DNA of 58,224 nt from positions 1 to 58,224 of IMG/VR virus record IMGVR_UViG_3300036761_003285, one strand, 5' to 3'. Each line of letters opens with the position of its first letter. The first letter of the stretch is position 1. This document shows, piece by piece, positions 3,206 to 26,562 of the stretch. The translations under genes were made by a program, and so were the position numbers. Below the pieces are notes generated by a model, which worked only from the letters and a program-made list of their open reading frames with translations, ran no database searches and was not told the origin of the DNA. The stretch comes from a virus. Lineage: Duplodnaviria > Caudoviricetes.

Positions 3206-3225
3206 TCAAAAAGAAGGAGTTAGCC

Positions 3226-4731: not shown

Positions 4732-4763
4732 AAGGTTGTCTAACACACTAGGAGGAACAAGAT

Positions 4764-5360: not shown

Positions 5361-5387
5361 GTACGAAACACGGAAGGAGGCTGAACC

Positions 5388-8476: not shown

Positions 8477-8488
8477 GGAGCCCGGTAA

Positions 8489-8857
8489 ATGATCAAGCAT
8501 CTTGAAAAACGAGTTGTTGTTGACAACAGGTACGCACTGACTGATATTCATGTTGACGATTTCGTGGGCCCCGGCCGTCGCCGCTATGGCTTGTGGAAGG
8601 CTCCGGCGATCAAGACACTTCCAGAGCTCCCTCTGAGCGAAGGTACGTACTTTAGGTACACAATCACTGCTGCAGATATCGGACGAATTGATCTCATTGC
8701 TTGGAGACACTATCAGGACGTGAATCTCTGGTGGGTCATTGCCCGGTGTAACGGGATTGCGAACCCGTTTGAGGATTTGGTCATAGGGCGGGTTCTTCTG
8801 ATTCCATACAAAGCGCTGGTGGTACAGGCCATCGAGCAAGGTAGAACTTTCGTATGA
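8489..8857 (+). CDS. LysM-type baseplate wedge protein (gp53-like)
   Basis: RIDLIAWRHY...LWWVIARCNGIANPF...LLIP. Confidence 0.88.
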   Translation: MIKHLEKRVVVDNRYALTDIHVDDFVGPGRRRYGLWKAPAIKTLPELPLSEGTYFRYTITAADIGRIDLIAWRHYQDVNLWWVIARCNGIANPFEDLVIGRVLLIPYKALVVQAIEQGRTFV

Positions 8858-10005: not shown

Positions 10006-10646
10006 TGACCCCACAACAATTTCTACAACTACTCAGACAAAGGAAAGTCAAGTACAAGGTGGTTGATCGTTATGTAGATGTAGAAGGTGACTGTAACATA
10101 GGTGGTCTAGGTCTAGTTGAGATTCCCGTACAGTTTCGTGTAGTTACAGGAAATTTCCACTGTGACCACAACCAACTCACGTCACTAGAAGGAGCTCCTG
10201 TTAGTGTGGGTGGTCGTTTCCACTGTGACCACAACCAACTCACGTCACTCGAAGGAGCTCCTGTTAGTGTAGGTGGAGATTTCTACTGTTATTCCAACCA
10301 ACTCACGTCACTTCGTCGCGGTCCTCGAGATGTAGGTGGAGATTTCTACTGTTATTCCAACCAACTCACGTCACTCGAAGGAGCTCCTGTTAGTGTAGGT
10401 GGTATTTTCTACTGTCACCACAACCTCCTCACGTCACTTCGTCGCGGCCCTCGAGATGTAGGTGGTCGTTTCCACTGTGACCACAACCAACTCACGTCAC
10501 TAGAAGGAGCTCCTGTTAGTGTAGGTGGTGGTTTCTACTGTGACCACAACTCCGTCGAATTCACGGAAGCTGATATCAAACGAGCCATGGAACAGAGTAG
10601 ACATAGTAGTGTTGAAAGTGTGATAGATGGGCTGGTGGGGTGTTGA
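10005..10646 (+). CDS. Leucine-rich repeat protein, copy 2 (complete)
   Basis: Unique N-terminus (VDVEGDCNI...IPVQF), six full 21-aa units plus one partial, same C-terminal tail as copy 1; TAATG coupling to hub gene. Confidence 0.92.
   Translation: MTPQQFLQLLRQRKVKYKVVDRYVDVEGDCNIGGLGLVEIPVQFRVVTGNFHCDHNQLTSLEGAPVSVGGRFHCDHNQLTSLEGAPVSVGGDFYCYSNQLTSLRRGPRDVGGDFYCYSNQLTSLEGAPVSVGGIFYCHHNLLTSLRRGPRDVGGRFHCDHNQLTSLEGAPVSVGGGFYCDHNSVEFTEADIKRAMEQSRHSSVESVIDGLVGC
10182..10640 (+). repeat. 63-bp tandem array plus dispersed direct repeat of 514-648
   Basis: Units at 10182, 10245, 10308, 10371, 10434, 10497; 10506-10640 matches 514-648 with one mismatch. Confidence 0.95.
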
Positions 10647-10648
10647 GT

Positions 10649-13045
10649 ATGGATTTGTATTCACTACTTCCGGCTGTCATCAGATTCAAAGACTCGCTCA
10701 CTAAGGGAAGTGTCGGTGAGGGCGTCGTTGAGCGAATCATCTACATGATGGAGCAGGAAGGAGAAACAACAGGAGATCTCATAGCGGGGTTACTTGATCA
10801 GATCAATCCTGATGAATGCGATGCAAAGTTCTTGATCTACATCTCGTTGACCCTCGGGTTTGCCGTTTCAGAGAATGCCGGTCAACCTCCGTCTGAAGAC
10901 TTTGCCCGTTGGTTTACAAAGAATCTCGTCAATTTCTACAAGATACGCGGGCGTCCGTTCTCATGGAAGAAGCAGTGGCAGTACTTAGAGACTGGTGGTG
11001 ACAGATATCTTGAGGCCTGGGAGCTGTGGAAGGACATTCCATACGAGAGGGGTCACTACTATAGGTACGGCGGCGGGGATGCGTACTATGGGCTACTTCA
11101 TGCTGCCCGTGTAGATCTCTTTAGAGAGATCAGCGGCATCAAAGAGTTCCTGCCTGTTCTCGAAGCCATGGGTCACATGCCTACTATTGAGTGGGTTCGG
11201 CCGATCCATGTTCTGCTTCGGATGAACTACTTCACTCCTGATTTCTACGAGACCGCCGAGTTGATCTCGGATGACAATCGTGATTTTGAAGCGCTTTACC
11301 AGCCCGCAGATCAGTTGTTGAATCCATCAGATGAGTTGGACATCATCATTTCCTGTCTTGCCTCGTGTGAAACAGTGTGTGAGTCCGGGCAAGAAACAGG
11401 CTGCCTGACTTCATGCGAAGCTGATTGTGAACCGATGTACGAAGCAGCCGGCCCGCCCGGCCCGCCCGGACCCCCGGGCCCGCCAGGAGGACCCGGAGCT
11501 GATGGGTGCGACGCATGCGTTCAAGGTGTGGTCTTCCCATCAGATTCAGGAGGGAAGATTGTTATTGTACTTTTCGACTACTTTGAATGCTGGGAAGTGG
11601 GAGAGTTGATCTGCGTTGAGATTCTTGATAAGCCATCTGGTCCTGTCCCGCCCACTGCTCCAAACCTCTTTAAGTTCGAGACAACCATAACCCAGATTGA
11701 GCACTACGGCGGTGTTCTGGCAAAGATTCATCTGGACAAGTTCCAGGCAGGCACAGGCATCAAGACTGATGATTATGCGATTGTGTGCCATGGAGCGTGT
11801 TCTTGTGACGCTTGTGAAACGCAAACAACCTTTGACGCGTCCACAGGAGCTCAGCTAATCACGTTCGAAACTCACAATCCATACTGCTGGCGGAAAGATG
11901 AGCCTGTCTGTGTCTATGTTCCTGATCCTACGTGGAGATATGTCAGTACAGGCAATGTAACACAGAAGCCTACTTTCAATCTGTCAAAAAAGAAGTGGTA
12001 CGTTGAGCTTTCCGTTCAGAAGCCGCCCATTGCCAGCGGAACGATCAATCTGAAGATCGTTATCTGCCATGGAGGGTGCCCTTACACAGGACCTACCGGA
12101 CCTCGTGGTCCTACAGGACCAGCCGGGAGACCCACTGGTTTTACTGGTCCTCAGGGTCCTACAGGACCAGCAGGAGGCGGTACCGGAGGAGGCCCCACAG
12201 GACCAACCGGAGAAACTGGTTGTGACGCGTGTGTCATTGCGACGTATCTCGGAGTGGATGGTTCAGGCAGGATCAAATTCACTGTTCCTGATGATGAGCG
12301 ATGTTGGACTGTGGGAGAAGATGTTTGTGTTTCAAACATCATTCCAACGGGCGGTTCTGAACCGCCAAAGAGATTCACTGGTGTAGTGATTGACAAAGGC
12401 GCTGGATACATCACTACGGACATGCTGAATAGCAATGTGTTCATGGATTGGCAGACAAATGAGAAAGCTACAATCTGTCACGGCCCTTGCGCTTGTGATG
12501 CATGTGAAATCGTTACTGATTATGAGACTGAAAGTGCGGGGAAGTGGCTCAAGTTTTATACACTTCACTACCGGTGCTGGAAGGTAGGAGAATCTGTTTG
12601 TGCAAGTGTGATTTCGTGGAATTACCAATCAGATGGTACGATTGCGTCAGTGACAAGATTGCCCAGCCTAAATTGGGAAGTAAAGATTGATCTGGATCTT
12701 GATCCTGCTCATACTGGTTCCTACATCGGCATTGTGACTGAGATTTGTCATGGGAGTTGTGCTCCTACTGGCCCTACTGGCCCTACTGGTGCAGGTTTTA
12801 CTGGTCCTCGTGGTCCCACCGGTCCTGCGGGAAGTGGTACCGGAGGAGGTGGTCCCGGTACTTGTCCTGCTTGCTCTACATATCCACCTCCGGGAACTAT
12901 GAAAGTGCTCTGGCAGACAACAGGGGGGAGTTATCAAACCTCGAAGCCAACGCTCAAGGCTGGGGCGTTCTGGGAAACGACCTTGTATTGTTCTAATAAC
13001 CAGTACTGTTTGGTAAACGATCAAGTTTGTCTGCCACTGACCTGA
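10649..13045 (+). CDS. Baseplate wedge/tail protein I (gp7/P2 gpI-like) fused to Cys-rich collagen-like fibre
   Basis: MDLYSLLP, INPDECDAKFL, FYKIRG, RPIHV in the N-domain; then CxxxC repeats, (GPP)n and (GPT)n tracts, four CDAC...CW...C...CHGxC domains. Confidence 0.8.
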   Translation: MDLYSLLPAVIRFKDSLTKGSVGEGVVERIIYMMEQEGETTGDLIAGLLDQINPDECDAKFLIYISLTLGFAVSENAGQPPSEDFARWFTKNLVNFYKIRGRPFSWKKQWQYLETGGDRYLEAWELWKDIPYERGHYYRYGGGDAYYGLLHAARVDLFREISGIKEFLPVLEAMGHMPTIEWVRPIHVLLRMNYFTPDFYETAELISDDNRDFEALYQPADQLLNPSDELDIIISCLASCETVCESGQETGCLTSCEADCEPMYEAAGPPGPPGPPGPPGGPGADGCDACVQGVVFPSDSGGKIVIVLFDYFECWEVGELICVEILDKPSGPVPPTAPNLFKFETTITQIEHYGGVLAKIHLDKFQAGTGIKTDDYAIVCHGACSCDACETQTTFDASTGAQLITFETHNPYCWRKDEPVCVYVPDPTWRYVSTGNVTQKPTFNLSKKKWYVELSVQKPPIASGTINLKIVICHGGCPYTGPTGPRGPTGPAGRPTGFTGPQGPTGPAGGGTGGGPTGPTGETGCDACVIATYLGVDGSGRIKFTVPDDERCWTVGEDVCVSNIIPTGGSEPPKRFTGVVIDKGAGYITTDMLNSNVFMDWQTNEKATICHGPCACDACEIVTDYETESAGKWLKFYTLHYRCWKVGESVCASVISWNYQSDGTIASVTRLPSLNWEVKIDLDLDPAHTGSYIGIVTEICHGSCAPTGPTGPTGAGFTGPRGPTGPAGSGTGGGGPGTCPACSTYPPPGTMKVLWQTTGGSYQTSKPTLKAGAFWETTLYCSNNQYCLVNDQVCLPLT

Positions 13046-13047
13046 GT

Positions 13048-14439
13048 ATGTCTTCTCCTTGTGATATTGCTACAAAGATGGGACTTGCCAAGGAAGCGAT
13101 TGACGGCCTTGTTAGTCGCTGTTTCACCGGAGTAACTCCCCCAGCAAAAGTTCCTACAGTTTGGTCTGACATGTGTGGTGACACGAGCGTCAGTCTGGCT
13201 CGCCAGATGTATGTGGATGTCGTGGCCCTGGTGGCAAGAACAGATAACACAGGCCATTTAACTGGTTGGGTTGATCCCGGAGCTCCTCCTACTTGTATCA
13301 CAGGTGCTTGGCTTGATAGCTTCATTGCTGCAGTCAATGCAGTTCTGTGTGAGTGTTGTCCTGATGGGATGGATGATTGCACAAGCAACTATTCTCCCTC
13401 AAGCACGCTTCAGATCAAGATCTGCTATCGTTCAGTCACGCTTACTTGGGACGGGGAAGCTGATGATTATTGGGTTGAGTACTGTTTTGTCGCTCCTCCG
13501 TATCCTTCGTATCCGTATATCTGCCTTCAGAAAACTGAAATGCCCGGTTCGTGTATAAAGTCAGGGAATAGTGGCTGGATAACTCCAAAAACTTACACAA
13601 TCCCTGCTGATACGGCTTGCAGTCGTTCAGAAAACTGGTGCTTGTACTGGCGTGTTAAGCCGAGATGTTGTGACAGAACGGAGGGAGATCCTTGTCCTAC
13701 TTGGGAGGAGGGGCCTTTTTCTGCAATCCAAAAAATACCTGTTGAAAATGGAAACGAGGGGTTCGCACCAGATGGATATCTTGATTGGTATCCGCCCGGA
13801 TCGAACTGTATTCCTTGCAGCGGAAGTTCAAAGCTTTGCGTGAAGTGGAAAGTTGGTCCTTGTTCTCGGCTTCTCAAACTCTGGGTGCGTCTCTTCACTG
13901 GTGGTGGAGCATGGACGGAAATAGTTCTAGATCAAATTGACGTTACAACGCAGAAGCAAGGGCAATCAGAGTATCCAATCAATCCAGCGTGGTGCACAGG
14001 AGGGGGGCCGTATGTGTCCGCGTGTGTTTTTGGAAAAGTATTCTCGAGCTCAGGAGTTGAGTGTGATATTCGTACTACGTCAACACTTCCTTTTCTGCCT
14101 CCTGGTCCTAGTTGTGCTTCGATGAATGGGTGTCAGGGTACTCATCAGCCATGCACGCCCGGGGCGATTTACCCGCTTACTTCATGGATAGTTATTAACG
14201 GAGGTCCAACCAAGAATCTGACGCCGTGGAAATGTGCGGGAGCGCCCGGCGGAGTACTCTACACGGTCTGGAGAGTAGTTGAGACAGTATACAACAGAAC
14301 TTATGCGTACGGGAATGTCAGTCAAGTTGCCACGCCCGACTGCCCGAACGGATTCCAGCTTATTGATCTTCCACCGTCGTGGACCCCCGAATACTTTACA
14401 TATCCCGGTTATATGAGACTTGAACTCGGTTGTTTCTGA
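13048..14439 (+). CDS. Cys-rich putative fibre/accessory virion protein with Fn3-like segment
   Basis: About 30 Cys; VTLTWDG..DYWVEY...YWRVKP Fn3-like pattern; follows fibre gene. Confidence 0.6.
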   Translation: MSSPCDIATKMGLAKEAIDGLVSRCFTGVTPPAKVPTVWSDMCGDTSVSLARQMYVDVVALVARTDNTGHLTGWVDPGAPPTCITGAWLDSFIAAVNAVLCECCPDGMDDCTSNYSPSSTLQIKICYRSVTLTWDGEADDYWVEYCFVAPPYPSYPYICLQKTEMPGSCIKSGNSGWITPKTYTIPADTACSRSENWCLYWRVKPRCCDRTEGDPCPTWEEGPFSAIQKIPVENGNEGFAPDGYLDWYPPGSNCIPCSGSSKLCVKWKVGPCSRLLKLWVRLFTGGGAWTEIVLDQIDVTTQKQGQSEYPINPAWCTGGGPYVSACVFGKVFSSSGVECDIRTTSTLPFLPPGPSCASMNGCQGTHQPCTPGAIYPLTSWIVINGGPTKNLTPWKCAGAPGGVLYTVWRVVETVYNRTYAYGNVSQVATPDCPNGFQLIDLPPSWTPEYFTYPGYMRLELGCF

Positions 14440-14441
14440 CA

Positions 14442-15311
14442 ATGAAGCTGCTCGAAAACGCCCACATGCCATACGTAGCGGTGATAAGCTCCGTCCCCCA
14501 TCTGTTCTTCTGCAGAGGGAGCAGGAAAACATCCACTTTTGGAGAAAGTACGTATTCATATGTGGACTGGCACATATACTGCGCTCTTCTTAGAGACCCT
14601 TCAATTTCTGTTCAACTCGCGCAAGGGCGTTTTGTTGAACCAGTAATTCAGTGCAACCCCTGTGTGCGCACTGAAGAAGGGCTGGTAAAACTAAGCTTTG
14701 TTTGTTCGGAAGTTCGAAGAAACACACCAACAAATTACTTGCTTTACACTCTGTCGGGCTCTTCTCTTGCTGATCTTAGCAATTTCTCTTTTGTGAACAT
14801 AGGTGCATACAGAATGTTCAACGGCGTGACACTTTCTGGTTGTACTGTTTTCTGCCGTTTGAGTGATATTCGTGTGAATCGAAAGGACGGTGGAGTAGAT
14901 GCGTTTCGAACCAGTTTTGATGAGGTGCTTCGAGTAATTCAAGGACGAAGCTCTTCAGAGATTATTGTCACCGGAAGGTCTGGTGCGGAGTATCGATCAG
15001 TTCTGTTTGATCTCGAAGACTACAAGTGTAAAGGGGAGATTTTTGCCGATCGAAATCCCGTGTACAAATGCTGTATCTATGGTGACAAAGTCTATCACGC
15101 TGTTCGAACAGGAGACTTTGAGGGCCGAGAGATTCACTCAGGGGATTTGTCGATTGAGCCTTGTAACATAACATTCACAGTTTCAGACAATTTGCGAAAT
15201 TCGCAACGTCCAGTTTCCGACAGAGAGATCATGACAAAGATCTTGTCTATGGGCGTGAATAACATGTCTGCTGGAGTTCTCAAAGGTCTCCTTGAAAAGG
15301 AGTTGGTATAA
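14442..15311 (+). CDS. Hypothetical protein (beta-rich)
   Basis: Long ORF coupled to both neighbours. Confidence 0.7.
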   Translation: MKLLENAHMPYVAVISSVPHLFFCRGSRKTSTFGESTYSYVDWHIYCALLRDPSISVQLAQGRFVEPVIQCNPCVRTEEGLVKLSFVCSEVRRNTPTNYLLYTLSGSSLADLSNFSFVNIGAYRMFNGVTLSGCTVFCRLSDIRVNRKDGGVDAFRTSFDEVLRVIQGRSSSEIIVTGRSGAEYRSVLFDLEDYKCKGEIFADRNPVYKCCIYGDKVYHAVRTGDFEGREIHSGDLSIEPCNITFTVSDNLRNSQRPVSDREIMTKILSMGVNNMSAGVLKGLLEKELV

Positions 15312-15754
15312 TGGGTTGTTGTGGAGACAAAGTCCCGAAGGTGCACTCGTTGCAGGCGGTAGTGGTAAACACACCACAAAACTTGATTCCTGTTACCTCT
15401 GTTCCTCCAATCAATCCAGAACTGAGGCTTCAGTTCGAGGCTTTTATTCGAGGTGGTGAGGTCACCCGCCCCTCTTGCAAGAACTGTGCTTGCAAACATC
15501 TTTCCCAGGCTCGCGCAATCATCAGCGAGAAGCAGAAAGCTCCTGAGTACAGACACTACTACTGGTTTGCCATGGGTCACATTGCCGAAGCAGAGGACGA
15601 GCTCGTTCGTTCCTACCCACAGATGGCTGCGGTGATCCGAGCAGAACGACTCAAGCTTGAGCATGACCCAAACTACTTGATATCTTTCGAGAGTCTAGTT
15701 GATGCCGTAACAAGCCTGCCCGACGCACAATTTGGGCCTGCAGAGAAGAAGTGA
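15311..15754 (+). CDS. Hypothetical Cys/His protein
   Basis: MGCCG start; CKNCACKHL and GHIAEAEDE motifs; AGGAG SD. Confidence 0.75.
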   Translation: MGCCGDKVPKVHSLQAVVVNTPQNLIPVTSVPPINPELRLQFEAFIRGGEVTRPSCKNCACKHLSQARAIISEKQKAPEYRHYYWFAMGHIAEAEDELVRSYPQMAAVIRAERLKLEHDPNYLISFESLVDAVTSLPDAQFGPAEKK

Positions 15755-15760
15755 GGGGTA

Positions 15761-17926
15761 ATGGCTTTGTGGTACGAGTGCGGTGCTGGATTTGTAAAAA
15801 CCCAAGTTGCCAGGGCAACAATTGGGGCAGATGTTTACTTGTGTTGCCCCGGGCCCTCTCTTGCCAAAGTCAATGATTTAGATCTTCATATTCCCGGAGT
15901 GGTGGTAGCCGCAATCAACACAGCATATCCAAAGATTAGACCGAATATCTGGTTGGGATTGGATGAACCGCAGTGTTACGACCGTCGCCTGTGGTTTGAG
16001 GGATTTGTGAAGATTACTCGAGGAAATTATAAGTTACTTGAGTGTGAAGGGAAGCCCATCAAAGATCTACCTTTCGTGTTTTTTGCTGACTGTGATTCAC
16101 CGAGTGCTGGAATTCGTGAAGTTGACTACATCCTTCAGCAGCGCGCTCACGATGTGAGGTTTGTTTGGGCGAAGAACACCTTGGTGTTTGCAATTCATGT
16201 TCTTGTGTGGTTAGGGGCTCGAAAGATCCATTTTGTTGGTTGTGATATGGGCGGGAACAAAGACTACTACGATTCTCGCATTCTTTCTGATGAAGAGCGG
16301 GCGAAGAATCAACTGCTCTATACACAGCAAGTTGAGTGGTTGCGTGAGTTTGTCCTGAAAGCCAAGGTTAGTGCAATCGAGTGCGTCAGTTGTACGGAAG
16401 GGTCTCCGTTGAATTCGATTATGCCATTTGTTCAACTAAGTGATGCTCTGAAAGCCTCTCGGAAACAGGCGCCCGAAGAGGCAGGTGAACTGATGCATTC
16501 GTCGAAATCATTTGAAGTTACAGCGACTCGAGAGTGGGCTAATGTTGTTCCTACGATTCCCGAAGCTGTGATGGTGGGAATCTCAAAGGCTGATGAAGAT
16601 CTCATTGATTGGTGGTGGTATTGGTTTTCAAAGACAAACTCTTACCCCGTACAGTTTGTTGATTTTGGCATGTCTGAAGAGGCCAGAAAGAAGTGTCGTT
16701 CTCTTGGTACTGTGATAGATCTCAATGACCCAATCAAAGAAGACGGGCAGCGGGGCTCGCTGAGAAAGCCGTTTGCTGCGCTTCTGACACACGCTGCACG
16801 GACAGTTTTCACAGATATTGATGCCGAGATTCGTGGCAATCTTGTATCTTTGTTCAAGCAAGATCTTGGTCCTCGAAAGTTCGCTGCAGCACAAGATTGG
16901 GCTGCTTCGCTAGCCTATCGAAAGAAAAACCCAAACACGGGACCTGTCATTTGCTCGGGTGTGTTTGTCTTTGATTACGGATCTGAAGTTGTAAAGAAGT
17001 GGGCTGATGCCATTCATACCCAGAAGGCAAAGTACAATGGTGATCAGTTGTATCTCAATGAGCTCTACTACAAGTGCGGCCTGTCAGACATCGTCCTTCT
17101 TGATGGCAAGGTTCATCGAACGCCACAGGAAGGCGATGATCCCGGAGTGTTGATCATGCACTACGGGGGCACGGCAAAGAATGCAGCCAGACGCGCGTGG
17201 GCTGCATTCAATTCAGGAATTCTTAGTGACCTATCCAAGGCCTATGAGTACAACTGGCGCCAGGCTTCGTTCAGTTTCACAAGAGGTGTAATTCTGGGGG
17301 CAGATCAAGCACAGGAGTGGATGCTCGAATGGTGGTGGGAGAACTACGATGCGCATAATACTCTACCTGTTTGCTTTGTTGATTTTGGTATGACCAAAGG
17401 GGCGCTTGATTGGTGCAGGCATCACGGAACAGTTACAGACCCAATTCACTTTGGTGGATACGCATGGTTCAAGAAGCCTTTGGCTACACTTGAAACCGTA
17501 TTTGCGAAAACGATCTGGCTCGATATAGACTGCCAAGTTCTGGGCAATCTTGATCCGCTCTTTGAGTACTGTAAAAGCAACGGTATCGGCATGACAGTGG
17601 ATCGAGGAACACCTGATCGGTACAAGCAGAGGTTGCCTCCCGAGGCAACCATCTACAACAGCGGCTGCATCGTGTACAACTTCAGAGACCCGGTCATGCC
17701 CCAGTGGGCGAAGATGACAGCGATCGTCTACGAGCAGCAGCCCGGGGATCAAGAAACGCTGGCACTGACGCTCAGAAGGTATGCAGTCGGCAGGATTCGT
17801 TCTATACCGAAAGAGCTTGTTCGACTACGCCTCGAAGAAGACGGCCCATGTATTGTGAGGCATTGGACTGGGCCCGTCGGCAAGGACAGAATCAGAGCAA
17901 TGAGTGTACAGGCAGAACTCAGATGA
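15761..17926 (+). CDS. Multidomain glycosyltransferase: Maf/DUF115-like domain plus two GT-A (GT8-like) domains
   Basis: CPGPSL...AIN and GARKIHFVGCD in the N-domain; two WWW...FVDFG...KP...DID...(N/C)SG...DQ...H domains. Confidence 0.75.
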   Translation: MALWYECGAGFVKTQVARATIGADVYLCCPGPSLAKVNDLDLHIPGVVVAAINTAYPKIRPNIWLGLDEPQCYDRRLWFEGFVKITRGNYKLLECEGKPIKDLPFVFFADCDSPSAGIREVDYILQQRAHDVRFVWAKNTLVFAIHVLVWLGARKIHFVGCDMGGNKDYYDSRILSDEERAKNQLLYTQQVEWLREFVLKAKVSAIECVSCTEGSPLNSIMPFVQLSDALKASRKQAPEEAGELMHSSKSFEVTATREWANVVPTIPEAVMVGISKADEDLIDWWWYWFSKTNSYPVQFVDFGMSEEARKKCRSLGTVIDLNDPIKEDGQRGSLRKPFAALLTHAARTVFTDIDAEIRGNLVSLFKQDLGPRKFAAAQDWAASLAYRKKNPNTGPVICSGVFVFDYGSEVVKKWADAIHTQKAKYNGDQLYLNELYYKCGLSDIVLLDGKVHRTPQEGDDPGVLIMHYGGTAKNAARRAWAAFNSGILSDLSKAYEYNWRQASFSFTRGVILGADQAQEWMLEWWWENYDAHNTLPVCFVDFGMTKGALDWCRHHGTVTDPIHFGGYAWFKKPLATLETVFAKTIWLDIDCQVLGNLDPLFEYCKSNGIGMTVDRGTPDRYKQRLPPEATIYNSGCIVYNFRDPVMPQWAKMTAIVYEQQPGDQETLALTLRRYAVGRIRSIPKELVRLRLEEDGPCIVRHWTGPVGKDRIRAMSVQAELR

Positions 17927-18585
17927 AGCAAGGTGTTCTAGTTGGTTGTTCGAGAGAGCAAGAGGACTTGCTCGAATGGTGGTGGGGGTGCTACAGTAAG
18001 CACAATACCCTTCCAGTCTGTTTTGTCACTTACGAGTTTGATCTAAAGGACAGTCTTCGTTTGTTGGAAAGAGGCGAAGTGGTTCAAAGTAACGAACCTT
18101 TCTCCAAAGGGACATTCAGGAAGGTGACAGCATTTAGTTTGTCGCCATTTGATGTTAATCTCTGGCTGGATCTTGACTGTGAAGTTCGAGGCGATCTCAG
18201 TCCGATTTTCTCGCTCTTTTCCTCGGGTTGTGTTTTCTGCCCCCGGGGCCCTCGCAAGTGCGGAACAAATGATCCATATGGTTGGTTCAAGATGTGTAAC
18301 TCCGGGTCATGGGTGAGAGATACTGGTCTCATTCTTGCTGATCGAGACGGTCGTTTGTATCGAAAGTGGTTTGCTGATGTGCAAGCTTTCAGCCATATGT
18401 ATCACGGTGAAAACGAGACGCTTGTGGTTGTTGCTGACCGTGAAGGACTTCCGATTGGCGAGGTTTCAGATCAGATGTTTCAATCGTGTCATCTTAATGT
18501 ATACCCGAATCCACTCGTGTTCCACTGGATCGGAGGCCGCGGGAAGTATCTACTCAGAGAGAGGATCGCCCGTGAAAGACTTTGA
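17923..18585 (+). CDS. GT-A glycosyltransferase (third paralogous domain)
   Basis: EWWW...NTLPVCFV, WLDLDCEVRGDL, HWIG; ATGA coupling. Confidence 0.75.
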   Translation: MKQGVLVGCSREQEDLLEWWWGCYSKHNTLPVCFVTYEFDLKDSLRLLERGEVVQSNEPFSKGTFRKVTAFSLSPFDVNLWLDLDCEVRGDLSPIFSLFSSGCVFCPRGPRKCGTNDPYGWFKMCNSGSWVRDTGLILADRDGRLYRKWFADVQAFSHMYHGENETLVVVADREGLPIGEVSDQMFQSCHLNVYPNPLVFHWIGGRGKYLLRERIARERL

Positions 18586-20962
18586 AGTTATTAACCCTAT
18601 TATTACTGGGAAACAAGAGCTGAGCTACCGAACAGGGCAAGGGAAGTATTATCACTTCAACGTGAGGGGTGATACTTTTGCTCTTGATGTGAACTCACTG
18701 ATGTTAATTCGAGGCCTGAAAGAGAATCTACCTCCTCCAAGTGACGAAGTTTCTCAGTTTCCATTCTGTCCTAATCGCAATGTGCTGGCACTTCTATTCT
18801 GTCTTACTCATCAGTGCAATCTGAAGTGCAAGTATTGTTACGTTGATCGGTTGTATTCATCTAACGATCGGATGACTCCCGAGATTGCCGCTACAGCGTT
18901 GACAACCTTGGTCAATCCTGATGCTGTGAGAAAGCAGGGGCTTCGGATCAGCTTTTTCGGAGGAGAGGCACTACTTGAATTCGAACTTCTCAAGCAGATT
19001 GTCTCGCTAGTCAGAACAGCTTTCCCGTCCCCCTGCCCTGTGCAGTTCAGTCTCACGACGAACGGGACGTTGTTGACTAAACCGATTGCTAAGTTCTTGG
19101 TTGAGCATAGCTTTTCAGTGATACTCTCGTTGGATGGCCCTCGTGAGCTCCACAATGAGACACGAATCTCTAGAGGAGGAGCGGGCTCCTTTGATGTTGC
19201 TCTTGAAGGACTCACTTTGTTGAACGAAGTAGCTCTGAAGAAGATTACTCTGAGAGCAACTTTCTTTCCCGAAAATCCTCGAATCATGGAGCGATTGGTG
19301 TTCTTGAATGCACTTTGTGATCAGGGCTTGGCTGCGAATGTCTCAATTGAACCTTCGATCTTGACTGAAAGTGAATGTGCCGCACAAGAGATTGATCAGT
19401 TTCAGGACAAGATCAACGCGGCAAGACTCGAGGCTGAGTACGCTGAGGCTACTGATTGGCTCCTCGGGCGATTGCGGCAGAAGAAGCCTGCGCGTTTCCA
19501 CAATATCATGCTCTATGCTGAGCGATTACTCTATCGTCGAAAGTACTGCAGTGATTGCGGAGCTGGCGTTGGGTATATCTCCATAGGACCAACAGGGAAG
19601 ATCTTTGCCTGCCACAGAGAGACCAACAGCTTGATCGGTGATCTCTCTCAGGGAGGGATAGACGAAGCACTAAGAGCACAGTGGGTAGACAATCGCTACT
19701 ATGTCAACAAAGAGTGTCGGCGGTGTGATCTTCGAAACGTTTGCGGAGGAACTTGCCGAGAGCATTCGCTTGGATCAATGGGTGATATCTTTGATGTTGA
19801 TCCGGTTCGTTGTACTTTCAAGCGACTGTGGATCCACTCAGCTGTGTATCTGATCTCCGAGCTTCCATCTGCTGATCGGACAAGTCTGATTCTGCAGAAG
19901 AAGCCACAGAAGGTCGAACTTCCTGATTCAAAGAAGGAGCGGTTCAACCTTGTTCGGGAAGCTGGCGGGTTTGGTGATATCATCTCCATTGGAGGTGCTG
20001 CTGTTCAGATCAAGAAGGAGTTCCCGAACTCGGAGATTTGCTTGTACTTGCCTGATGATTTCGTTGATGTTGCGAAGCATCTTCGTGAAATCGACCAAGT
20101 AGTAGGTCTTGGTTCTGTTGAGACACTATCTAAGCAACGTCGTGTTCGAGGCGAGAAGTTTGATTCTGGAAAGTACACATACCTTTCGAAAGTGGCTAAC
20201 CGGGGCTTAGTTGTTGATCTCTGGTGTCCTGCAGTCAAGTACGAGCAGCAAGAGAAGGATCGCATTCAGCACACACGTTCGCAGATCTTTGCAAGTGTGA
20301 TATGTAAGGAAGACTCACATGCGATTCCTCGTTGGTTCTCAACTCCTGCAGAACGTGTAAAAGCAAGTAGCTATCTGAACAAGGCATTTGGAGATCCTAG
20401 TGATACTGGACCAACAATCGCCCTGGCTGCAAGAGGCACAAAGGCGGAGAAGAATATTTCAGAGCACCATTTGCAGGATCTGCTTACTTGGTTGATCTCT
20501 AAGAACAGCAATGTTGTGTGGATGGATTGTTTGGATCCCTCTGTCATTCTACACGGGTTTGCCAACAACAAGATAGTTTGGCCGAATGTATCATTCTGTG
20601 AATCCGTAGCAATTCTCGAGCAGTGTGATCTTCTCATTTCTGTTGATACTGGAATCTTTCATGCTGGTGTGGCTGCTCGAGTTCCTACTGTTGGTGTGTT
20701 TGGGATGACAGATGGGAACCCTTATATTGGATTCTACCCCTTGACGTACGTCGTACAGAATGAAGTGCCCCATGAAGGCATTTGCACGATACCTTGCAAT
20801 TCATCTTCGGAAAAAGGACACATTGTAGGTTGTAGTCTGGCATGCGCGCGGATGCAGAACTTGTCGTTTGATGAGTTGAAGCTGGCTGTTCTTTCGGCAA
20901 TGAAGACGGCATCAGCTCCTCAGTTTCAGGAGTACCGGTTGCGCCTATTTGATGAGAAATGA
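18572..20962 (+). CDS. Radical SAM/SPASM maturase (SCIFF/CteB-like) fused to GT9 glycosyltransferase domain
   Basis: ALDVNS N-terminal motif; CNLKCKYC; FFGGEALL; TTNGTLL; SLDGPRELHN; SPASM CGAG..IFACH, CRRC...VCGGTC...C. C-terminal GGFGDII, ISVDTGIFH, VPTVGVFG. GTG at 18572 follows an AGGA SD. Confidence 0.9.
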   Translation: MKDFEVINPIITGKQELSYRTGQGKYYHFNVRGDTFALDVNSLMLIRGLKENLPPPSDEVSQFPFCPNRNVLALLFCLTHQCNLKCKYCYVDRLYSSNDRMTPEIAATALTTLVNPDAVRKQGLRISFFGGEALLEFELLKQIVSLVRTAFPSPCPVQFSLTTNGTLLTKPIAKFLVEHSFSVILSLDGPRELHNETRISRGGAGSFDVALEGLTLLNEVALKKITLRATFFPENPRIMERLVFLNALCDQGLAANVSIEPSILTESECAAQEIDQFQDKINAARLEAEYAEATDWLLGRLRQKKPARFHNIMLYAERLLYRRKYCSDCGAGVGYISIGPTGKIFACHRETNSLIGDLSQGGIDEALRAQWVDNRYYVNKECRRCDLRNVCGGTCREHSLGSMGDIFDVDPVRCTFKRLWIHSAVYLISELPSADRTSLILQKKPQKVELPDSKKERFNLVREAGGFGDIISIGGAAVQIKKEFPNSEICLYLPDDFVDVAKHLREIDQVVGLGSVETLSKQRRVRGEKFDSGKYTYLSKVANRGLVVDLWCPAVKYEQQEKDRIQHTRSQIFASVICKEDSHAIPRWFSTPAERVKASSYLNKAFGDPSDTGPTIALAARGTKAEKNISEHHLQDLLTWLISKNSNVVWMDCLDPSVILHGFANNKIVWPNVSFCESVAILEQCDLLISVDTGIFHAGVAARVPTVGVFGMTDGNPYIGFYPLTYVVQNEVPHEGICTIPCNSSSEKGHIVGCSLACARMQNLSFDELKLAVLSAMKTASAPQFQEYRLRLFDEK

Positions 20963-21798
20963 AAACGATTGACGTTGCTGTTTTCGTGAGGGACAGATAC
21001 GAGCATCTCGTGTTCTGTACTTCCTGGTTGAAGAACAGCAAGGAGTGCCCCGGAGTCGTGTTTAATCGGGTTGCCTATGACGACAGTAGTGCTGATTCAA
21101 GGGTTGGCGAGTTTCTTGGGGGTTCATATGACAAAGTAGAGTCGGTGCCGAGAGAAGTCACTGCTGTTGATCCTGAGCAGCGAATCGGATGGGCGCGGAG
21201 ATTGGCAGTACAGAACTTCCTGAAAAAGTCGATTGCAAACTTTCTGCTGCTTCTCGATAGTGATATCATCGTCACAAAAGAAACAATTGCAGAAGCTGTA
21301 AGAGATTACGAGGCGCTTAATGATTGGGTTGAGGTCGGAGGAGGTACCCTCTACGCCATCAGTCATACAACCGGGCAGATTCATGCGAACGGGAAACACT
21401 TCTCGAAGGTGGCTCTTACAGGTGATGCCCATATGCTGTTCAAGAGAGAGCATCTTGAGCGCATTGGAAACCACTTCAGTACGAAGCCAAAAGGATTTGC
21501 TGACAACCAGATTCAAGCGATTCGTGATCAAGGTAAGGTCTACTTTACTCGTATCAGTCCTCCTTATCAAGTGCAACACATTGGGTTCGGTGAGGGCGTA
21601 TCACTTGTCTACAAGCAGGAGAAGTTCAAACCCTCGTGGACAATGCGACCGTACTGGACCCATGAATCTAATCGAAGGATTCTTCAGGTGGAGAACTTTG
21701 ACGTATTACACTACATCAATTGCATCAATGCTGTGGGCGGCATCAGCGCACCTGAGGAGTACACGAAAACCAAAGGAATAGCCAATGAACACAAGTGA
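20959..21798 (+). CDS. GT2-like glycosyltransferase
   Basis: VAVFVRDRYEHL, YDDSS, LLLDSDII, VQHIG. Confidence 0.75.
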   Translation: MKTIDVAVFVRDRYEHLVFCTSWLKNSKECPGVVFNRVAYDDSSADSRVGEFLGGSYDKVESVPREVTAVDPEQRIGWARRLAVQNFLKKSIANFLLLLDSDIIVTKETIAEAVRDYEALNDWVEVGGGTLYAISHTTGQIHANGKHFSKVALTGDAHMLFKREHLERIGNHFSTKPKGFADNQIQAIRDQGKVYFTRISPPYQVQHIGFGEGVSLVYKQEKFKPSWTMRPYWTHESNRRILQVENFDVLHYINCINAVGGISAPEEYTKTKGIANEHK

Positions 21799-22231
21799 TG
21801 TGGTACGGAAAGAACTTCGGGGTGAAGTTGTCTTCACACAGGTTTCTGCCTTCGGTGAGCGCCGTTTAGTACAGACAAATCTAGTTGTTAACAACGCCTA
21901 CAGGCAGCTTGCATATCTTCTTGGGTATACAAGCCTTGCCTGTGTCAATCGCATGCGATTCGGAACCAGTGGGACCGCGCCGGCAATGGGAGATCTCAAC
22001 GTCGTTCCCGTACCGGCTGTTGGTTTTCTCGTTACCACTAACACCTTTCCTAGTGCCACAAGTGTGAAGTTCACAGCGAGTTGGGGCCCGGCAGAATCAT
22101 CCCCGGCGTCCTTTCAAGAGGTGGGCCTTTTCTCCTCTGACGGCATACTGGTTGCACGAGTTGTGTTTTCTCCAATGATGAAGTCTGTCGGGTGGACCTG
22201 GACGATCGAATGGACGCTGGCATACGTATGA
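21785..22231 (+). CDS. Tail-collar/fibre-attachment baseplate protein, paralogue 1
   Basis: NLVVN...FGTSGTAP...QEVGLFSSDG.LVARVVF..K pattern. Confidence 0.7.
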   Translation: MNTSDVVRKELRGEVVFTQVSAFGERRLVQTNLVVNNAYRQLAYLLGYTSLACVNRMRFGTSGTAPAMGDLNVVPVPAVGFLVTTNTFPSATSVKFTASWGPAESSPASFQEVGLFSSDGILVARVVFSPMMKSVGWTWTIEWTLAYV

Positions 22232-22238
22232 GGTGAAT

Positions 22239-22673
22239 ATGAAAGGCAGATTGGTCGTTTCTGAGCACAACCTGAAAACAGGGAAGCGTCGAGTGGTTGT
22301 TGACGTACAGAACATGATTCTGAACAACATGTACGAGCAGTTCATCAAGTTGTTCGGATGTGCGGGGAATGAGGCTTACTTGGCCAAGATGATCTTTGGG
22401 ACGGGGAACGATGCCCCTGATCCTACTCAGAGCTTTCTCAGTCGTCCCATCACTCCTGCAAAGAATGTGATTTGCACTGTTGATCCAGTCAACTATTCGG
22501 TGCTGGCTACTGCATCACTGCTATCTGATGAGGGAAATGGCTTTCCGATTTCCGAAGCTGGCCTGCTGACCTACGACAACGTTCTGGTCACTCGAGCGGT
22601 TTTCGATACTAGGATGAAGACTTCAGATTTTGTATTCAATTTCAACTGGACGGTCTATACCAAGGCACCGTAG
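22239..22673 (+). CDS. Tail-collar/fibre-attachment baseplate protein, paralogue 2
   Basis: NMILN...FGTGNDAP...ISEAGLL...LVTRAVF..KTSD; GAGGTG SD. Confidence 0.7.
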   Translation: MKGRLVVSEHNLKTGKRRVVVDVQNMILNNMYEQFIKLFGCAGNEAYLAKMIFGTGNDAPDPTQSFLSRPITPAKNVICTVDPVNYSVLATASLLSDEGNGFPISEAGLLTYDNVLVTRAVFDTRMKTSDFVFNFNWTVYTKAP

Positions 22674-24453: not shown

Positions 24454-25122
24454 ATGGATTCAAAGTTTGATGGTGTAATCATTGTCAGCGGGGGTTTGGA
24501 TTCTACAACTCTTCTGTATCATCTTGTCAAGCAGAATCTCAAGATCACGGCACTCAGTTTCGACTACGGTCAGCGTCACTCAAGAGAACTCGTTTGTGCC
24601 TGCTGGCAGTGTGACTCCCTGAAGGTTCCTCACAAGATCATTGATCTCGGTAACATCAAGCAGCTTCTTCAGGGCAGTTCTCTCACTAGTCCTGAGATTG
24701 TCACACCTGAGGGGCACTACGCGCAGGAGAACATGAAGTTGACGGTTGTTCCAAACAGGAACATGATCATGTTATCCTTAGCGATCGCCTGTGCAATCTC
24801 TCTCAAGGCACCCAAGGTGTGGTATGGCGCTCACGCCGGAGATCACGCAATCTACCCAGATTGCCGCCCGGCGTTTGTCAAGGCCATGCAGAGGACGGCT
24901 GATCTTTGTGACTGGAATCCTGTTGACATCGAAGCTCCCTTTCTGGGAATCGACAAGGCTGGGATTGTTTCGATAGGTCTCGAGCTGGGTGTGAGGTACG
25001 ACCAGACCTGGACCTGCTACAGTGGCAGGGAGAAAGCCTGTGGGAAGTGTGGTTCTTGCAGTGAGCGGCTCGAAGCGTTTGAGAAGAACCATTTGAAGGA
25101 TCCACTTGAGTATGAGCATTGA
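24454..25122 (+). CDS. queC: 7-cyano-7-deazaguanine synthase
   Basis: SGGLDSTT, YGQRH, VPNRN, YPDCRP, CY...CGKCGSC.ER. Confidence 0.97.
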   Translation: MDSKFDGVIIVSGGLDSTTLLYHLVKQNLKITALSFDYGQRHSRELVCACWQCDSLKVPHKIIDLGNIKQLLQGSSLTSPEIVTPEGHYAQENMKLTVVPNRNMIMLSLAIACAISLKAPKVWYGAHAGDHAIYPDCRPAFVKAMQRTADLCDWNPVDIEAPFLGIDKAGIVSIGLELGVRYDQTWTCYSGREKACGKCGSCSERLEAFEKNHLKDPLEYEH

Positions 25123-25669
25123 CCAGAAGAAGCTCGAGCAGGCGACTCTGTTGTTCCTGGAAGGACTTGGTCTTGATACAGAAGATCAGCACTTCAAGAA
25201 CACTCCGGCTCGAGTGGCTCGTGCGTGGAAGCAAGACTTCGGTGCTGGTTACGAGATGGATCCCGAGAAGGTCCTCACAGTGACCTTCTCGGATGACTAT
25301 GATGAGATGATCGTTGTGAAGGACATTCCCGTCCTGAGTTACTGCGCGCATCATGTGGTGCCTTTCTTTGGCAAGGCCAAGGTGGGTTACGTACCAAACA
25401 ACCGGCGTATCACCGGGCTCTCCAAGTTGGCGCGCATTGTCGATGTCTTTGCTAAGAGGCTTCAGGTCCAGGAGAGATTGACCCGGCAGGTTGCCAGTGC
25501 CATCAATGATATTCTCAAACCCAAAGGGGTTGGTGTAGTGATTTCAGCGAGTCACATGTGCATGAGTCACAGAGGTGTTCGTGCGGTGGGGAGTGAGACT
25601 GTCACGAGCTGCCTCATAGGGTGCATGAGAGATGAGCCAGAAACGCGAGCTGAGTTCCTCCAGTTCTAA
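25112..25669 (+). CDS. folE: GTP cyclohydrolase I
   Basis: TPARVA, CAHHVVPF, GLSKLAR, QVQERLT, HMCMSHRGV. Confidence 0.97.
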   Translation: MSIDQKKLEQATLLFLEGLGLDTEDQHFKNTPARVARAWKQDFGAGYEMDPEKVLTVTFSDDYDEMIVVKDIPVLSYCAHHVVPFFGKAKVGYVPNNRRITGLSKLARIVDVFAKRLQVQERLTRQVASAINDILKPKGVGVVISASHMCMSHRGVRAVGSETVTSCLIGCMRDEPETRAEFLQF

Positions 25670-26108
25670 GCCCGAGGTAGTAAAGCGTTATTTGTGTTGG
25701 GATGAGTACTACGGGCTTGTTGTGGATCTTGCCGAGATGATTCTTCAACACGCACCTGGAACAAAGCCGATCTACCTGATTGGTATCCCTCGAGCAGGGG
25801 GGCTGCTCGCTCTTCTCATGACTTACCTTCATGACCGGTTTTTCATGTTTGATCAAGGTGCAGTGATTGACCCAAAAAGAGCACACATCTTCGTTGTCGA
25901 TGACATCCTCGATACGGGCACCACACGAAAGGCCTACGGAACCTTATATCCCTGGGCAGTATTGATTGACAAATCGCCAATCACGAAGATTCCGCCTGCA
26001 GATCTCGCTGCCGACACATTGACCCATAGGCAGTGGGTTGTATTTCCTTATGAGGTGGATAATAGCAAATCAGAGAATATCAGCAGAAAGGCGCGCGGGT
26101 ATGATTAG
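25632..26108 (+). CDS. Type I phosphoribosyltransferase (purine PRT-like)
   Basis: GIPRAGG, VVDDILDTGTT PRPP loop, WVVFPYE; start uncertain. Confidence 0.85.
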   Translation: MSQKRELSSSSSKPEVVKRYLCWDEYYGLVVDLAEMILQHAPGTKPIYLIGIPRAGGLLALLMTYLHDRFFMFDQGAVIDPKRAHIFVVDDILDTGTTRKAYGTLYPWAVLIDKSPITKIPPADLAADTLTHRQWVVFPYEVDNSKSENISRKARGYD

Positions 26109-26562
26109 GAGAGCAAAAGATGACGTTTCGAAGCTGAAGTCGCTCGGAAGTAAGGTGACGATCTACCCAAATTGTTCCGGAGCGAATGTGCTTCTGCTCG
26201 AGCGCTTCCCAAACAAGTTTGAGGCTCCTTACATGGTCGAGCTCAGAACGAGTGAGTTTACCTCACTCTGTCCCAAGACCGGACAACCTGACTTTGGTAA
26301 GATCAGGGTCAGATACATTCCGAACAGGTGGTGCATCGAGTCCAAGGGGTTCAAGTTGTACATGTTCTCGTACCGTGGCGAGCATAGCTTCATGGAGACC
26401 ATCACGAACAACATTCTGAAGGCTCTCTCCTTACTGGTCCATCCAAACTGGATGGAGGTCACCGGAGACTTTGCTGCTCGAGGCGGTGTCGGGATCAAGG
26501 TTGTTGCCACCTACGTCAAGGGCCAGGTACCATCCTCTCGGATGTCGAGAAAGGGCCGATGA
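26101..26562 (+). CDS. queF: PreQ0 reductase (unimodular QueF)
   Basis: EFTSLCPKTGQPDFG, ESKGFKLY QueF motif, F.ARGG. Confidence 0.92.
   Translation: MIRRAKDDVSKLKSLGSKVTIYPNCSGANVLLLERFPNKFEAPYMVELRTSEFTSLCPKTGQPDFGKIRVRYIPNRWCIESKGFKLYMFSYRGEHSFMETITNNILKALSLLVHPNWMEVTGDFAARGGVGIKVVATYVKGQVPSSRMSRKGR

Follow-up and report, generated by a model that had tools for sequence, protein, structure and literature searches.

A CteB-like radical S-adenosylmethionine (SAM) enzyme with a full SPASM domain, joined in one polypeptide to a family 9 glycosyltransferase (GT9) of the GT-B fold, is encoded in the tail-fibre module of a myovirus, with tail components on both sides of the gene. The virus is known from record IMGVR_UViG_3300036761_003285, a linear stretch of 58,224 bases with a CheckV completeness estimate of 66%, analysed here at its full length and referred to as the window. 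We propose, at a probability of roughly 55%, that the radical SAM domain modifies one or more cysteine-rich tail proteins of this virus and shares this target with the GT9 domain. The more general idea, that widespread tailed phages use dedicated radical SAM/SPASM enzymes to turn segments of baseplate and tail-fibre proteins with cysteines at four-residue (CXXX) spacing into glycosylated ladders of thioether rings, is one that we put forward more tentatively, as falling a little short of an even bet.

The gene lies in a single, uninterrupted open frame on the + strand (18335-20962), and translation from the GTG at 18572 yields a product of 796 residues, P0001. This GTG is the likely start, because a Shine-Dalgarno-like stretch, GAGAGAGGA, ends 7-8 nt upstream of it and the N-terminus of homologue P0002, also 796 residues long and 67% identical, coincides with it; the codon falls 14 nt inside the end of the upstream gene, overlapping its stop. 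An earlier note, made from the sequence alone, had described one open reading frame (ORF) with radical SAM, SPASM, linker and GT9 parts at 18572-20962, and Pfam, motifs and a structural model all bear out this layout. Every motif that it quoted was found: an N-terminal segment (YHFNVRGDTFALDVNS, residues 26-41), the CX3CX2C of the radical SAM core (C82/C86/C89, positions 18815-18838), and the SPASM set, part of which lies in CGAGVGYISIGPTGKIFACH (residues 329-348). The seven SPASM cysteines are C329, C347, C382, C385, C391, C395 and C414 (positions 19556-19813), with a CX2CX5CX3C spacing at C382/C385/C391/C395 followed by C414, and they fit the CX9-15GX4C...CX2CX5CX3C...C pattern of SPASM domains, which provides for two auxiliary clusters. 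In an alignment of relatives, all 13 of 13 sequences keep these seven cysteines, the three core cysteines and G342. Pfam recognises Radical_SAM (PF04055) at residues 78-242 (50.7 bits, cut-off 29.5), Fer4_12, and Glyco_transf_9 (PF01075) at residues 615-715 (31.5 bits, cut-off 22). The Pfam SPASM model PF13186 gave no match to P0001, and the SPASM domain is assigned on its cysteine motif together with structural and sequence alignment to CteB. Placement in the radical SAM superfamily follows from the cysteine motif, the Pfam score and fold matches to CteB and to the anaerobic sulfatase-maturating enzyme (anSME), and hidden Markov model (HMM) E-values of 7e-55 (PapB model) and 1.4e-50 (SCIFF model) rule out a chance match. 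An AlphaFold2 model, built from a 72-row alignment, reached a mean predicted local distance difference test score (pLDDT) of 93 and a predicted template modelling score of 0.79; pLDDT drops below 50 only at linker residues 448-450, with confident flanks on both sides, and the GT-B domain spans residues 454-780, which agrees with the start near 19940 claimed for it in the earlier note.

That the join is an assembly or sequencing artefact is a vanishingly improbable explanation. Eight further clusters (P0002-P0009, 777-796 residues), from a search of 5.8 billion proteins, share the architecture, with both domains, at least 91% query coverage and 37-67% identity, and the 135-kb viral contig L201 holds an 804-residue fused frame (41% identity) and follows the gene order of the window from the large glycosyltransferase as far as DNA polymerase. 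Moreover, contigs from three other runs (X5, X6 and X9), which may come from one campaign, bridge positions 19892-19940 with 0 differences and 0 gaps, and the model is confident on either side of the linker. The fusion is thus genuine, as had been supposed. The stretch recurs in 19 listed runs, all labelled sediment metagenome, and no RNA run is among the listed runs that carry it. The fused form was found in the window, L201 and L002 and in the eight clusters, while in L003, L004, L005, L008, L010, L011/L013, L014 and L016 the radical SAM and GT9 genes are neighbouring but distinct ORFs that differ in frame or have a gap between them; that the two are fused in some loci and neighbouring in others points to a functional link between them. 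The fused form is absent among 50,697 GenBank phage records, of which 78 match and none covers 80% of the query. The fused homologue of L002 (44% identity) contains one in-frame TAG (5758-5760) within its SPASM region, at a position occupied by Q, P or K in relatives, which could stem from mutation or error, or could be read through.

What kind of radical SAM enzyme is this? The best-scoring NCBIfam model is PapB (NF047865; 186.5 bits, cut-off 340), followed by the SCIFF maturase (TIGR03974; 172.5 bits, cut-off 425), the nif11-type maturase (TIGR04064; 171.3 bits, below its cut-off) and QhpD (TIGR03906; 166 bits, cut-off 453), the cut-offs of these four models ranging from 340 to 519 bits. Among solved structures, CteB comes closest in sequence (E 2e-36, residues 70-427) and also in fold, with a Foldseek value of 6e-23 and, in VIA-align, a Z-score of 36.5 at a root-mean-square deviation of 2.8 A over 389 of 440 residues. 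The SPASM enzymes anSME, ChlB, TigE and SuiB score Z 19-30 against the model, with ChlB at 30.0 and anSME at 29.8. In a quick maximum-likelihood tree of 61 sequences, for which we chose AtsB as root, P0001 falls in a clade of 46 viral or metagenomic sequences (support of 94 in the Shimodaira-Hasegawa-like approximate likelihood ratio test), and the SCIFF, QhpD and nif11 maturases form the adjoining clade (support 95). The anchors of this tree were three QhpD sequences above cut-off (L287, L288, L293; 505-665 bits), two nif11 maturases, of which one passes the cut-off and the other falls 0.4 bits short, four SCIFF maturases identified by their source names, and one annotated AtsB beside an arylsulfatase gene; PapB had no sequence above cut-off to include. 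A HMMER scan of 1.84 billion representatives returned 387 proteins at E <=1e-30, and the best 150 of these are 30-68% identical to P0001, mostly unfused and about 430-490 residues long. By these comparisons, P0001 is a member of a large, unnamed and mostly viral or metagenomic clade of enzymes that resemble thioether maturases.

The radical SAM part therefore groups with thioether-forming peptide maturases rather than with anSME, on the evidence of NCBIfam, of the Z-scores of CteB and anSME, and of the tree, which was one of the earlier note's claims. An anSME-like enzyme making formylglycine on a protein is most improbable: such a reading could draw on the fold match (Z 29.8) and on the database name 'anaerobic sulfatase-maturating enzyme' that some relatives carry, but the anSME model (TIGR03942) gives only 95.9 bits against a cut-off of 349 and covers residues 79-222 of the N-terminal core, the match to anSME in the PDB (7e-14) is limited to residues 78-208, and AtsB lies outside the viral clade on a branch 4.4 long, under the root that we set. 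No sulfatase gene was found among the window ORFs searched, which were a part of the whole set, nor any qhp gene. The narrower identification as a SCIFF maturase, which the earlier note had favoured, fails: the score lies far below the cut-off, the clade is a separate one, the RiPP recognition element (RRE; RiPP, ribosomally synthesised and post-translationally modified peptide) is missing, and no small SCIFF-like precursor (~45 residues, six cysteines) is encoded nearby, the genes at 14430-22673 overlapping or abutting one another and leaving no room for it.

The loss of the RRE merits closer description. Only 69 residues precede the radical SAM core in P0001, and the SCIFF model and CteB align with it by HMM or sequence only from their positions 94-95, so that the N-terminus is indeed shortened, as had been noted. 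Before residue 90 the model contains six β-strands and no helix (pLDDT 72-97), and VIA-align begins at model residue 23, opposite CteB residue 1, with about 50 residues of CteB finding no counterpart. Taking a winged helix of three strands and three helices as the definition of an RRE, the N-terminal domain lacks the RRE of SCIFF maturases; in the model the β-strands of the CteB type are kept and the three helices are gone. The absence of these helices makes canonical leader binding unlikely, against the earlier claim that this domain binds a leader.

Inteins with LAGLIDADG or HNH homing endonucleases interrupt nine maturase homologues (L008:8720-11149, L014:9737-12325, P0136, P0157, P0175, P0199, P0202, P0245 and P0255) at several insertion points in the radical SAM core, and account for the 'long' maturase forms of 790-1440 residues. 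Inteins usually reside in strongly constrained genes, which we count in favour of tail-protein modification.

The second half of the polypeptide belongs to the GT9 family (PF01075) by its Pfam score, its GT-B fold and its GD and DTGxxH motifs. A profile of nine GT9 domains matched the Veillonella GT9 structure 3TOV (3e-17), WaaC (8e-15) and WaaF (1.4e-13), with an insignificant value of 0.69 for TibC, and VIA-align over residues 454-782 gives Z-scores of 24.6 for 3TOV, 23.5 for WaaF, 21.1 for WaaC and 19.9 for TibC. The invariant G18-D19 (numbering of alignment A6) aligns with SMGD of WaaC, and D242...H247 of the DTGxxH motif with DTGLSHL; we take the former to correspond to the Asp13 base of WaaC, and the roles of both motifs are presumably those of the heptosyltransferases. 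The domain looks catalytically intact from these residues, and it bears an additional C-terminal motif of four invariant cysteines (C288, C292, C304 and C308 in A6). ADP-heptose is the usual donor in the GT9 family; no heptose-synthesis gene was found among the window ORFs searched.

The argument for a substrate comes from what lies beside the enzyme. As a control for 80 viral loci retrieved with the enzyme family, we took 80 viral loci that had been retrieved with QueC and are similar in total length. A run of at least four CXXX-spaced cysteines was present in 53/80 maturase loci, of at least six in 38/80 and of at least ten in 25/80, against 2/80 control loci with at least four (both in short minus-strand ORFs) and 0/80 with at least six. 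In all 38 loci with a run of at least six, the repeat ORF lies on the maturase strand, at a median gap of 18.5 nt, and in 31 of them within 1 kb. Across the 16 closest loci the maturase precedes or follows large, very cysteine-rich proteins, and 12 have runs of at least six; large repeat proteins are present in 14/17 loci, and no short cysteine-rich ORF is conserved beside the enzyme across loci. The most extreme array comprises ~125 consecutive C-E/Q-x-x units in a 615-residue protein of L010 (21% cysteine), and further C-E/Q-x-x runs occur in L003, L006, L007, L008, L015, L016 and L017, while L012, whose enzyme falls within the same clade, has C-T-x-G units in a 735-residue protein. Among the 12 closest loci with at least five units, the residue after cysteine is Glu or Gln in 74-100% of units in ten, the other two being L004 (60%) and L012 (Thr); the remaining two positions of the four-residue unit vary. 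Constraint on both the cysteine and the following Glu/Gln or Thr would be expected if both are reaction partners. In the substrates of QhpD and PapB, Cys is joined to a Glu or Asp side chain; in that of CteB it is joined to a Thr five residues downstream, a position which in C-E/Q-x-x arrays is occupied by the residue after the next cysteine. That enzyme clade and repeat type agree was not counted as evidence of co-evolution, since related phages inherit both.

A second radical SAM/SPASM clade also adjoins CXXX arrays in viruses. More distant viral loci with C-T/S/G-G-x arrays encode maturases of TIGR04115 (7/7 tested; 402-533 bits, cut-off 350), a model against which P0001 scores only 75.8 bits, and the repeat proteins beside these enzymes match only phrog_6085 and other PHROGs of no assigned function. 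In the planctomycete metagenome-assembled genome (MAG) contig L282, a 1391-residue frame (5497-9669) with 94 cysteines and a CXXX run of 22 cysteines lies just upstream of a maturase match that reaches query residue 758 by tblastn and so includes the GT9 part; this region could belong to a prophage, or to a phage contig that was binned wrongly.

Within the window, the counterpart of these repeat proteins would be the 801-residue P2-gpI-like tail protein (Table 1), which is homologous to the repeat proteins of L003, L008, L009 and L016 at 27-41% identity over 250-425 residues. The cysteine share is 0-2.3% in the virion genes at 2114-10005 and rises to 3.8-6.4% in four genes at 10005-15311. Between its gpI-like baseplate-binding domain and its collagen-like shaft, the tail protein carries the module C239-x3-C243-E-x2-C247-E...C255-x3-C259-E-x2-C263-E, exactly at the columns where the longer arrays of its relatives begin. 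In alignments of 8 and 11 homologues, C243, C247, C259, E260 and C263 are invariant and C239, E244 and C255 nearly so. The closest homologues, P0267 and P0268, have the short six-cysteine form too, and P0268 probably shares one 135,046-bp contig with the fused enzyme P0008. As to the identity of the family, the protein at L003:6524-7459 passes the Pfam Tail_P2_I threshold (43.4 bits against 20.6) and two other repeat proteins match it weakly; a family profile gave only weak matches in the PDB (pyocin Tri2 PA0619, 0.063; wedge protein gp32, 0.08), and neither NCBIfam nor Pfam offered a name for the cysteine-rich proteins of the window or for the repeat proteins of L010 and L012. The AlphaFold2 model of residues 1-347 had a pLDDT of 43.7 and was not used for fold searches, and a complex prediction of the enzyme, with three 4Fe-4S clusters and SAM, and tail-protein residues 220-280 scored 0.00, which, in a run with no controls, is evidence neither way. 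The tail protein also has collagen-like G-P-x runs and four domain copies bounded by C-D-A-C and I-C-H-G-x-C, possible metal or disulfide sites.

From these elements we posit the following course of events. Late in infection, in the host cytoplasm, the radical SAM domain would cleave SAM reductively and abstract a hydrogen from a carbon in the side chain of a Glu or Gln, the simplest candidate being the residue right after Cys in C-E/Q-x-x. The cysteine sulfur would then be joined to this carbon, building ranthipeptide-type thioether rings into the CxxxCExxCE...CxxxCExxCE module (residues 239-264); other cysteine-rich fibre proteins may be modified as well. The fused GT9 would next place a sugar on the thioether-modified tail protein, and the neighbouring GT-A enzymes (15761-18585 and 20959-21798) could extend the glycans or add others. 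What results would be a hinge, stapled by covalent links and glycosylated, that connects the baseplate-binding domain with the shaft of the fibre and withstands reduction, proteases and heat. The enzyme would have to recognise its substrate without a canonical RRE and leader. The earlier note had proposed crosslinking and glycosylation of one substrate: the coupling of the two reactions remains plausible, given the eight loci with adjacent genes, but the substrate is likely a large tail protein and not a leader-bearing peptide.

Several considerations weigh against this proposal. The candidate site in the window is short, with two runs of three cysteines that fall below our run threshold, and it lies 5.5 kb upstream of the maturase rather than adjacent to it. 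Four of the 16 closest loci (L002, L005, L009 and L014) show no run of at least four cysteines; the upstream flank is 4.7 kb in L002 and 1.2 kb in L005, L009 keeps the short module, and L014 has none within 10 kb. Nor are the locus counts independent events, the genes being shared by descent among related phages. The reverse test, in which a (CExx)5 DNA pattern retrieved 119 viral loci, was negative in its raw form: a maturase was found in 5 of the first 80 loci, in 5/37 pattern records and in 0/11 records at least 90% complete. We discount this figure because the pattern mostly caught tandem repeats in short ORFs: 26 of the 119 loci have no in-frame run and 81 have their run in an ORF of <300 residues, and among 15 loci inspected, 12 proved to be near-perfect 12-bp tandem repeats in ORFs of 48-158 residues, one had its run in a 955-residue frame and two had none in frame. 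Restricted to runs in ORFs of at least 300 residues, a restriction chosen after seeing the data, 12 loci remain, of which seven have a maturase in the locus and one more in the record; two of the others, without a maturase in the record, are a 23%-complete fragment and a giant-virus bin, and the remaining 2 were judged on the locus alone. The carbon that would be attacked and the course of the links, within a chain or between chains, are conjectural. Lastly, the GT9 domain is nearer to the lipopolysaccharide (LPS) heptosyltransferases than to the protein heptosyltransferase TibC, which counts mildly against a protein acceptor. The 12-bp tandem repeats caught by the pattern, which read (S-C-E-x)n in ORFs of ~50-160 residues in L098, L122, L123, L134, L137, L146, L147 and others, occur on viral contigs that include complete ones, and their translation is putative.

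Alternative accounts differ from ours in the reaction, in the target or in the whole purpose of the cluster. The enzyme could act on the same CXXX tail modules by another chemistry, such as sactionine links to α-carbons, inter-chain locks of a trimer or oxidation of cysteine. We regard this as unlikely yet deserving of attention, considering that SPASM enzymes of similar fold (anSME, ChlB, TigE, SuiB) differ in their reactions, that P0001 reaches no equivalog cut-off and sits in its own clade, and that the L012 relative with C-T-x-G units lies inside that clade; on the other hand, the strict Glu/Gln after Cys is most simply read as the acceptor residue, and the nearest families, SCIFF, QhpD, PapB and nif11, all form thioethers from cysteine. 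Decidedly unlikely, in our view, is that the matured product is something other than the 801-residue tail protein, be it a small cysteine-rich peptide (a glycosylated RiPP serving as bacteriocin or signal), the 470-residue protein at 13027-14439 or a host protein. The habits of the enzyme class, which normally works on short precursor peptides, the further cysteine-rich ORFs of the window, and the shortness and distance of the candidate tail-protein site would all suit this idea; the tightly packed genes at 14430-22673, which leave a small precursor no room, the consistent presence of large repeat proteins in place of a conserved short ORF, and the loss of the helices that would bind a leader do not, and the conserved downstream phrog_5417 proteins carry 0-2 cysteines, several of them none.

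A different view would place the glycosyltransferases, GT9 included, outside the virion, remodelling the host envelope (heptosylation of the LPS core, superinfection exclusion) or glycosylating phage DNA, with the radical SAM domain producing or tailoring the sugar or having a role of its own. The likeness of GT9 to WaaC/WaaF-type LPS heptosyltransferases could be read this way, as could the position of the cluster just upstream of a 7-deazaguanine DNA-modification cluster and the published glycosylation of DNA by phage glycosyltransferases (bioRxiv 10.1101/2023.12.21.572611). We consider it improbable: the radical SAM part is of a peptide-modifying type with full SPASM, tail genes flank the enzymes on both sides, and the two-way association with CXXX-repeat proteins would be left unexplained. 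The 7-deazaguanine pathway, moreover, has its own small radical SAM enzyme (36698-37384), so the SPASM enzyme is not part of it. Modification of the tail protein by the radical SAM domain, followed by GT9, is the reading that we prefer; Table 1 summarises the genomic setting.

Table 1. Positions in the window of the fused gene, its domains, the proposed substrate and the neighbouring genes.
Feature	Position	Strand	Basis or remark
Fused radical SAM/SPASM-GT9 gene	18572..20962	+	796 aa, GTG start, stop counted
N-terminal all-β domain, residues 1-68, conserved D-x-N-S-L motif, without RRE helices	18572..18775	+	Alignment, DSSP of the model, CteB alignment
Radical SAM core and SPASM domain, residues 69-440	18776..19891	+	Pfam, NCBIfam, alignment, CteB match
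Linker, residues 441-456	19892..19939	+	Dip in model confidence; bridged by X5, X6 and X9 contigs
GT9 (GT-B) domain, residues 457-796, GD and DTGxxH motifs, C-terminal four-Cys cluster	19940..20959	+	
P2-gpI-like baseplate/tail-fibre protein, 801 aa, 36 Cys, collagen-like repeats; proposed substrate	10640..13045	+	
Six-Cys CxxxCE module, tail-protein residues 239-264; proposed crosslinking site	11354..11431	+	Conserved in 11 homologues
470-aa protein, 30 Cys (6.4%), no family; possible further substrate or fibre tip	13027..14439	+	
Two proteins without assigned family	14430-15754		
721-aa multidomain putative glycosyltransferase, two GT-A/GT8-like repeats (266-480, 508-720)	15761..17926	+	
220-aa GT-A paralogue of the two repeats of the 721-aa protein	17923..18585	+	Start inferred, ATG 17923
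GT2-like protein, conserved downstream neighbour	20959..21798	+	Weak GT2 match
Two phrog_5417 paralogues (148 and 146 aa); probable small tail-fibre components	21785..22673	+	

Long ORFs of the window lie almost all on the + strand, and upstream of the enzyme PHROG matches identify a tail sheath protein (E 9e-96), a sheath stabiliser, a baseplate hub and tail-fibre proteins. Directly before the proposed substrate, a 213-residue protein (10005-10646) is built from a 22-residue unit, F-x-C-x-x-N-Q-L-T-S-L-E-G-A-P..., that recurs about seven times with a single cysteine per copy, and matches only PHROGs of no assigned function. The 721-residue glycosyltransferase shows a weak GT8 match and internal repeats and has homologues in L002, L014 and L201; in L201 the glycosyltransferase upstream of the fused gene (16-4320) is 1435 residues long, about twice as large. 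GT2-like homologues occur in 7/16 loci compared (L002-L017) and in L201. The Atlas clusters closest to the phrog_5417 paralogues are viral, and in one of them 15% of members carry Phage_tail_fib; the scarcity of cysteine in phrog_5417 proteins rules these out as thioether substrates, and they could instead be targets of glycosylation. A 429-residue ORF in L008 (13197-14486) matches both the GT2-like and the phrog_5417 proteins, which are separate neighbours in the window. Further downstream, the 7-deazaguanine set (24454-27554) comprises QueC, GTP cyclohydrolase I, a weak phosphoribosyltransferase-like ORF, a QueF-like protein and a DpdA-like transglycosylase, and the separate small radical SAM enzyme, probably QueE, is encoded ~9 kb beyond it.

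As for the host, the nearest genomic relatives are MAG contigs, the planctomycete L282 among them. The earlier note had taken the oxygen-sensitive chemistry as a hint of an anaerobic host; matches in Sphingobium and Novosphingobium, which are aerobes, are true QhpD, and with such relatives in aerobes an anaerobic host is not inferable from the type of enzyme. The sediment label of the runs is compatible with low oxygen and proves nothing.

How much of this is new? The kind of enzyme was already known, as was the pairing of enzyme and CXXX protein as a curated bioinformatic family, for which we found no described function or tail context in the literature searched. New are a distinct clade made up largely of viral sequences, an N-terminal domain that has lost the RRE helices, the fusion to GT9 or its conserved adjacency, and the placement in tail modules beside tail proteins with CXXX arrays. 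Our search, from which subscription journals and supplements were excluded, found no literature in which a radical SAM enzyme acts on a phage tail protein, and none on tail proteins with CXXX repeats; in the parts available to us, two papers (PMC12801897, PMC5332604) mention phage radical SAM genes in passing only. Nor did the literature searched contain a thioether made by a radical SAM enzyme in a virion protein.

Should the proposal hold, RiPP-type chemistry would serve to build a virus particle, and the thioethers would be the first such crosslinks to be installed enzymatically in a virion protein, as well as the longest thioether arrays known, with up to ~125 consecutive C-E/Q-x-x units in L010. 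Radical chemistry would harden the receptor-binding organelles of phages and sugars would decorate them, with consequences for the stability of virions in sediment, for host recognition and for evasion of immunity or proteases. It would also mean that RiPP maturases can act without leader or RRE on full-size structural proteins, and the curated 'CXXX-repeat target' systems would gain a concrete biological context. Protein engineers would find attractive scaffolds in the very long C-E/Q-x-x arrays, and the fusion described here offers a direct handle on the whole question: one polypeptide and one short, conserved target module.

Among characterised systems, the closest parallel is CteB, the SCIFF maturase of C. 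thermocellum (5WGG/5WHY), with which P0001 shares the CX3CX2C motif, the seven-cysteine SPASM domain and N-terminal strands that align from CteB residue 1. Unlike CteB, however, P0001 has about 25 fewer N-terminal residues, lacks the RRE helices, is fused to GT9 and is encoded by a phage, and in place of a 45-residue precursor its presumed substrate is an 801-residue tail protein. SCIFF cores are themselves rich in cysteine with CXXX spacing, and in L322 a 76-residue ORF with CQTSCQSACKTSC stands just ahead of the maturase match. QhpD, PapB and the nif11 maturases give the best HMM matches besides SCIFF (166-186 bits), and QhpD and nif11 fall in the clade beside the viral one. The chemistry proposed for P0001 is that of QhpD, which ties Cys to the side chain of Asp or Glu within a protein subunit, and of PapB, which forms such links in CxxxD/E motifs. 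Yet P0001 misses all of these cut-offs by about two-fold or more, and the substrates of these enzymes are QhpC or short leader-bearing peptides, with neither a glycosyltransferase fusion nor a virion context.

TIGR04115, the 'CXXX-repeat target family', is a curated radical SAM/SPASM group defined bioinformatically, and the logic of an enzyme beside its CXXX target is common to both. The enzyme of the window belongs to another clade, is linked to GT9, and has as presumed targets C-E/Q-x-x segments in gpI-like tail proteins; whereas its own candidate shows two three-cysteine runs 5.5 kb upstream, its closest relatives have long, adjacent runs. The GT9 domain shares the GT-B fold with WaaC, WaaF, 3TOV and TibC (4RAP), the last of which shows, going by its PDB titles, that a GT-B/GT9 fold can glycosylate proteins. 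It differs from all four in its fusion to a radical SAM enzyme, its divergent acceptor-binding half and its extra four-cysteine cluster. Finally, the capsid chainmail of HK97 is held by autocatalytic isopeptide bonds and the virions of mycobacteriophages are glycosylated; the tail protein considered here would join these as a structural protein of a tailed phage that is stabilised or decorated after translation.

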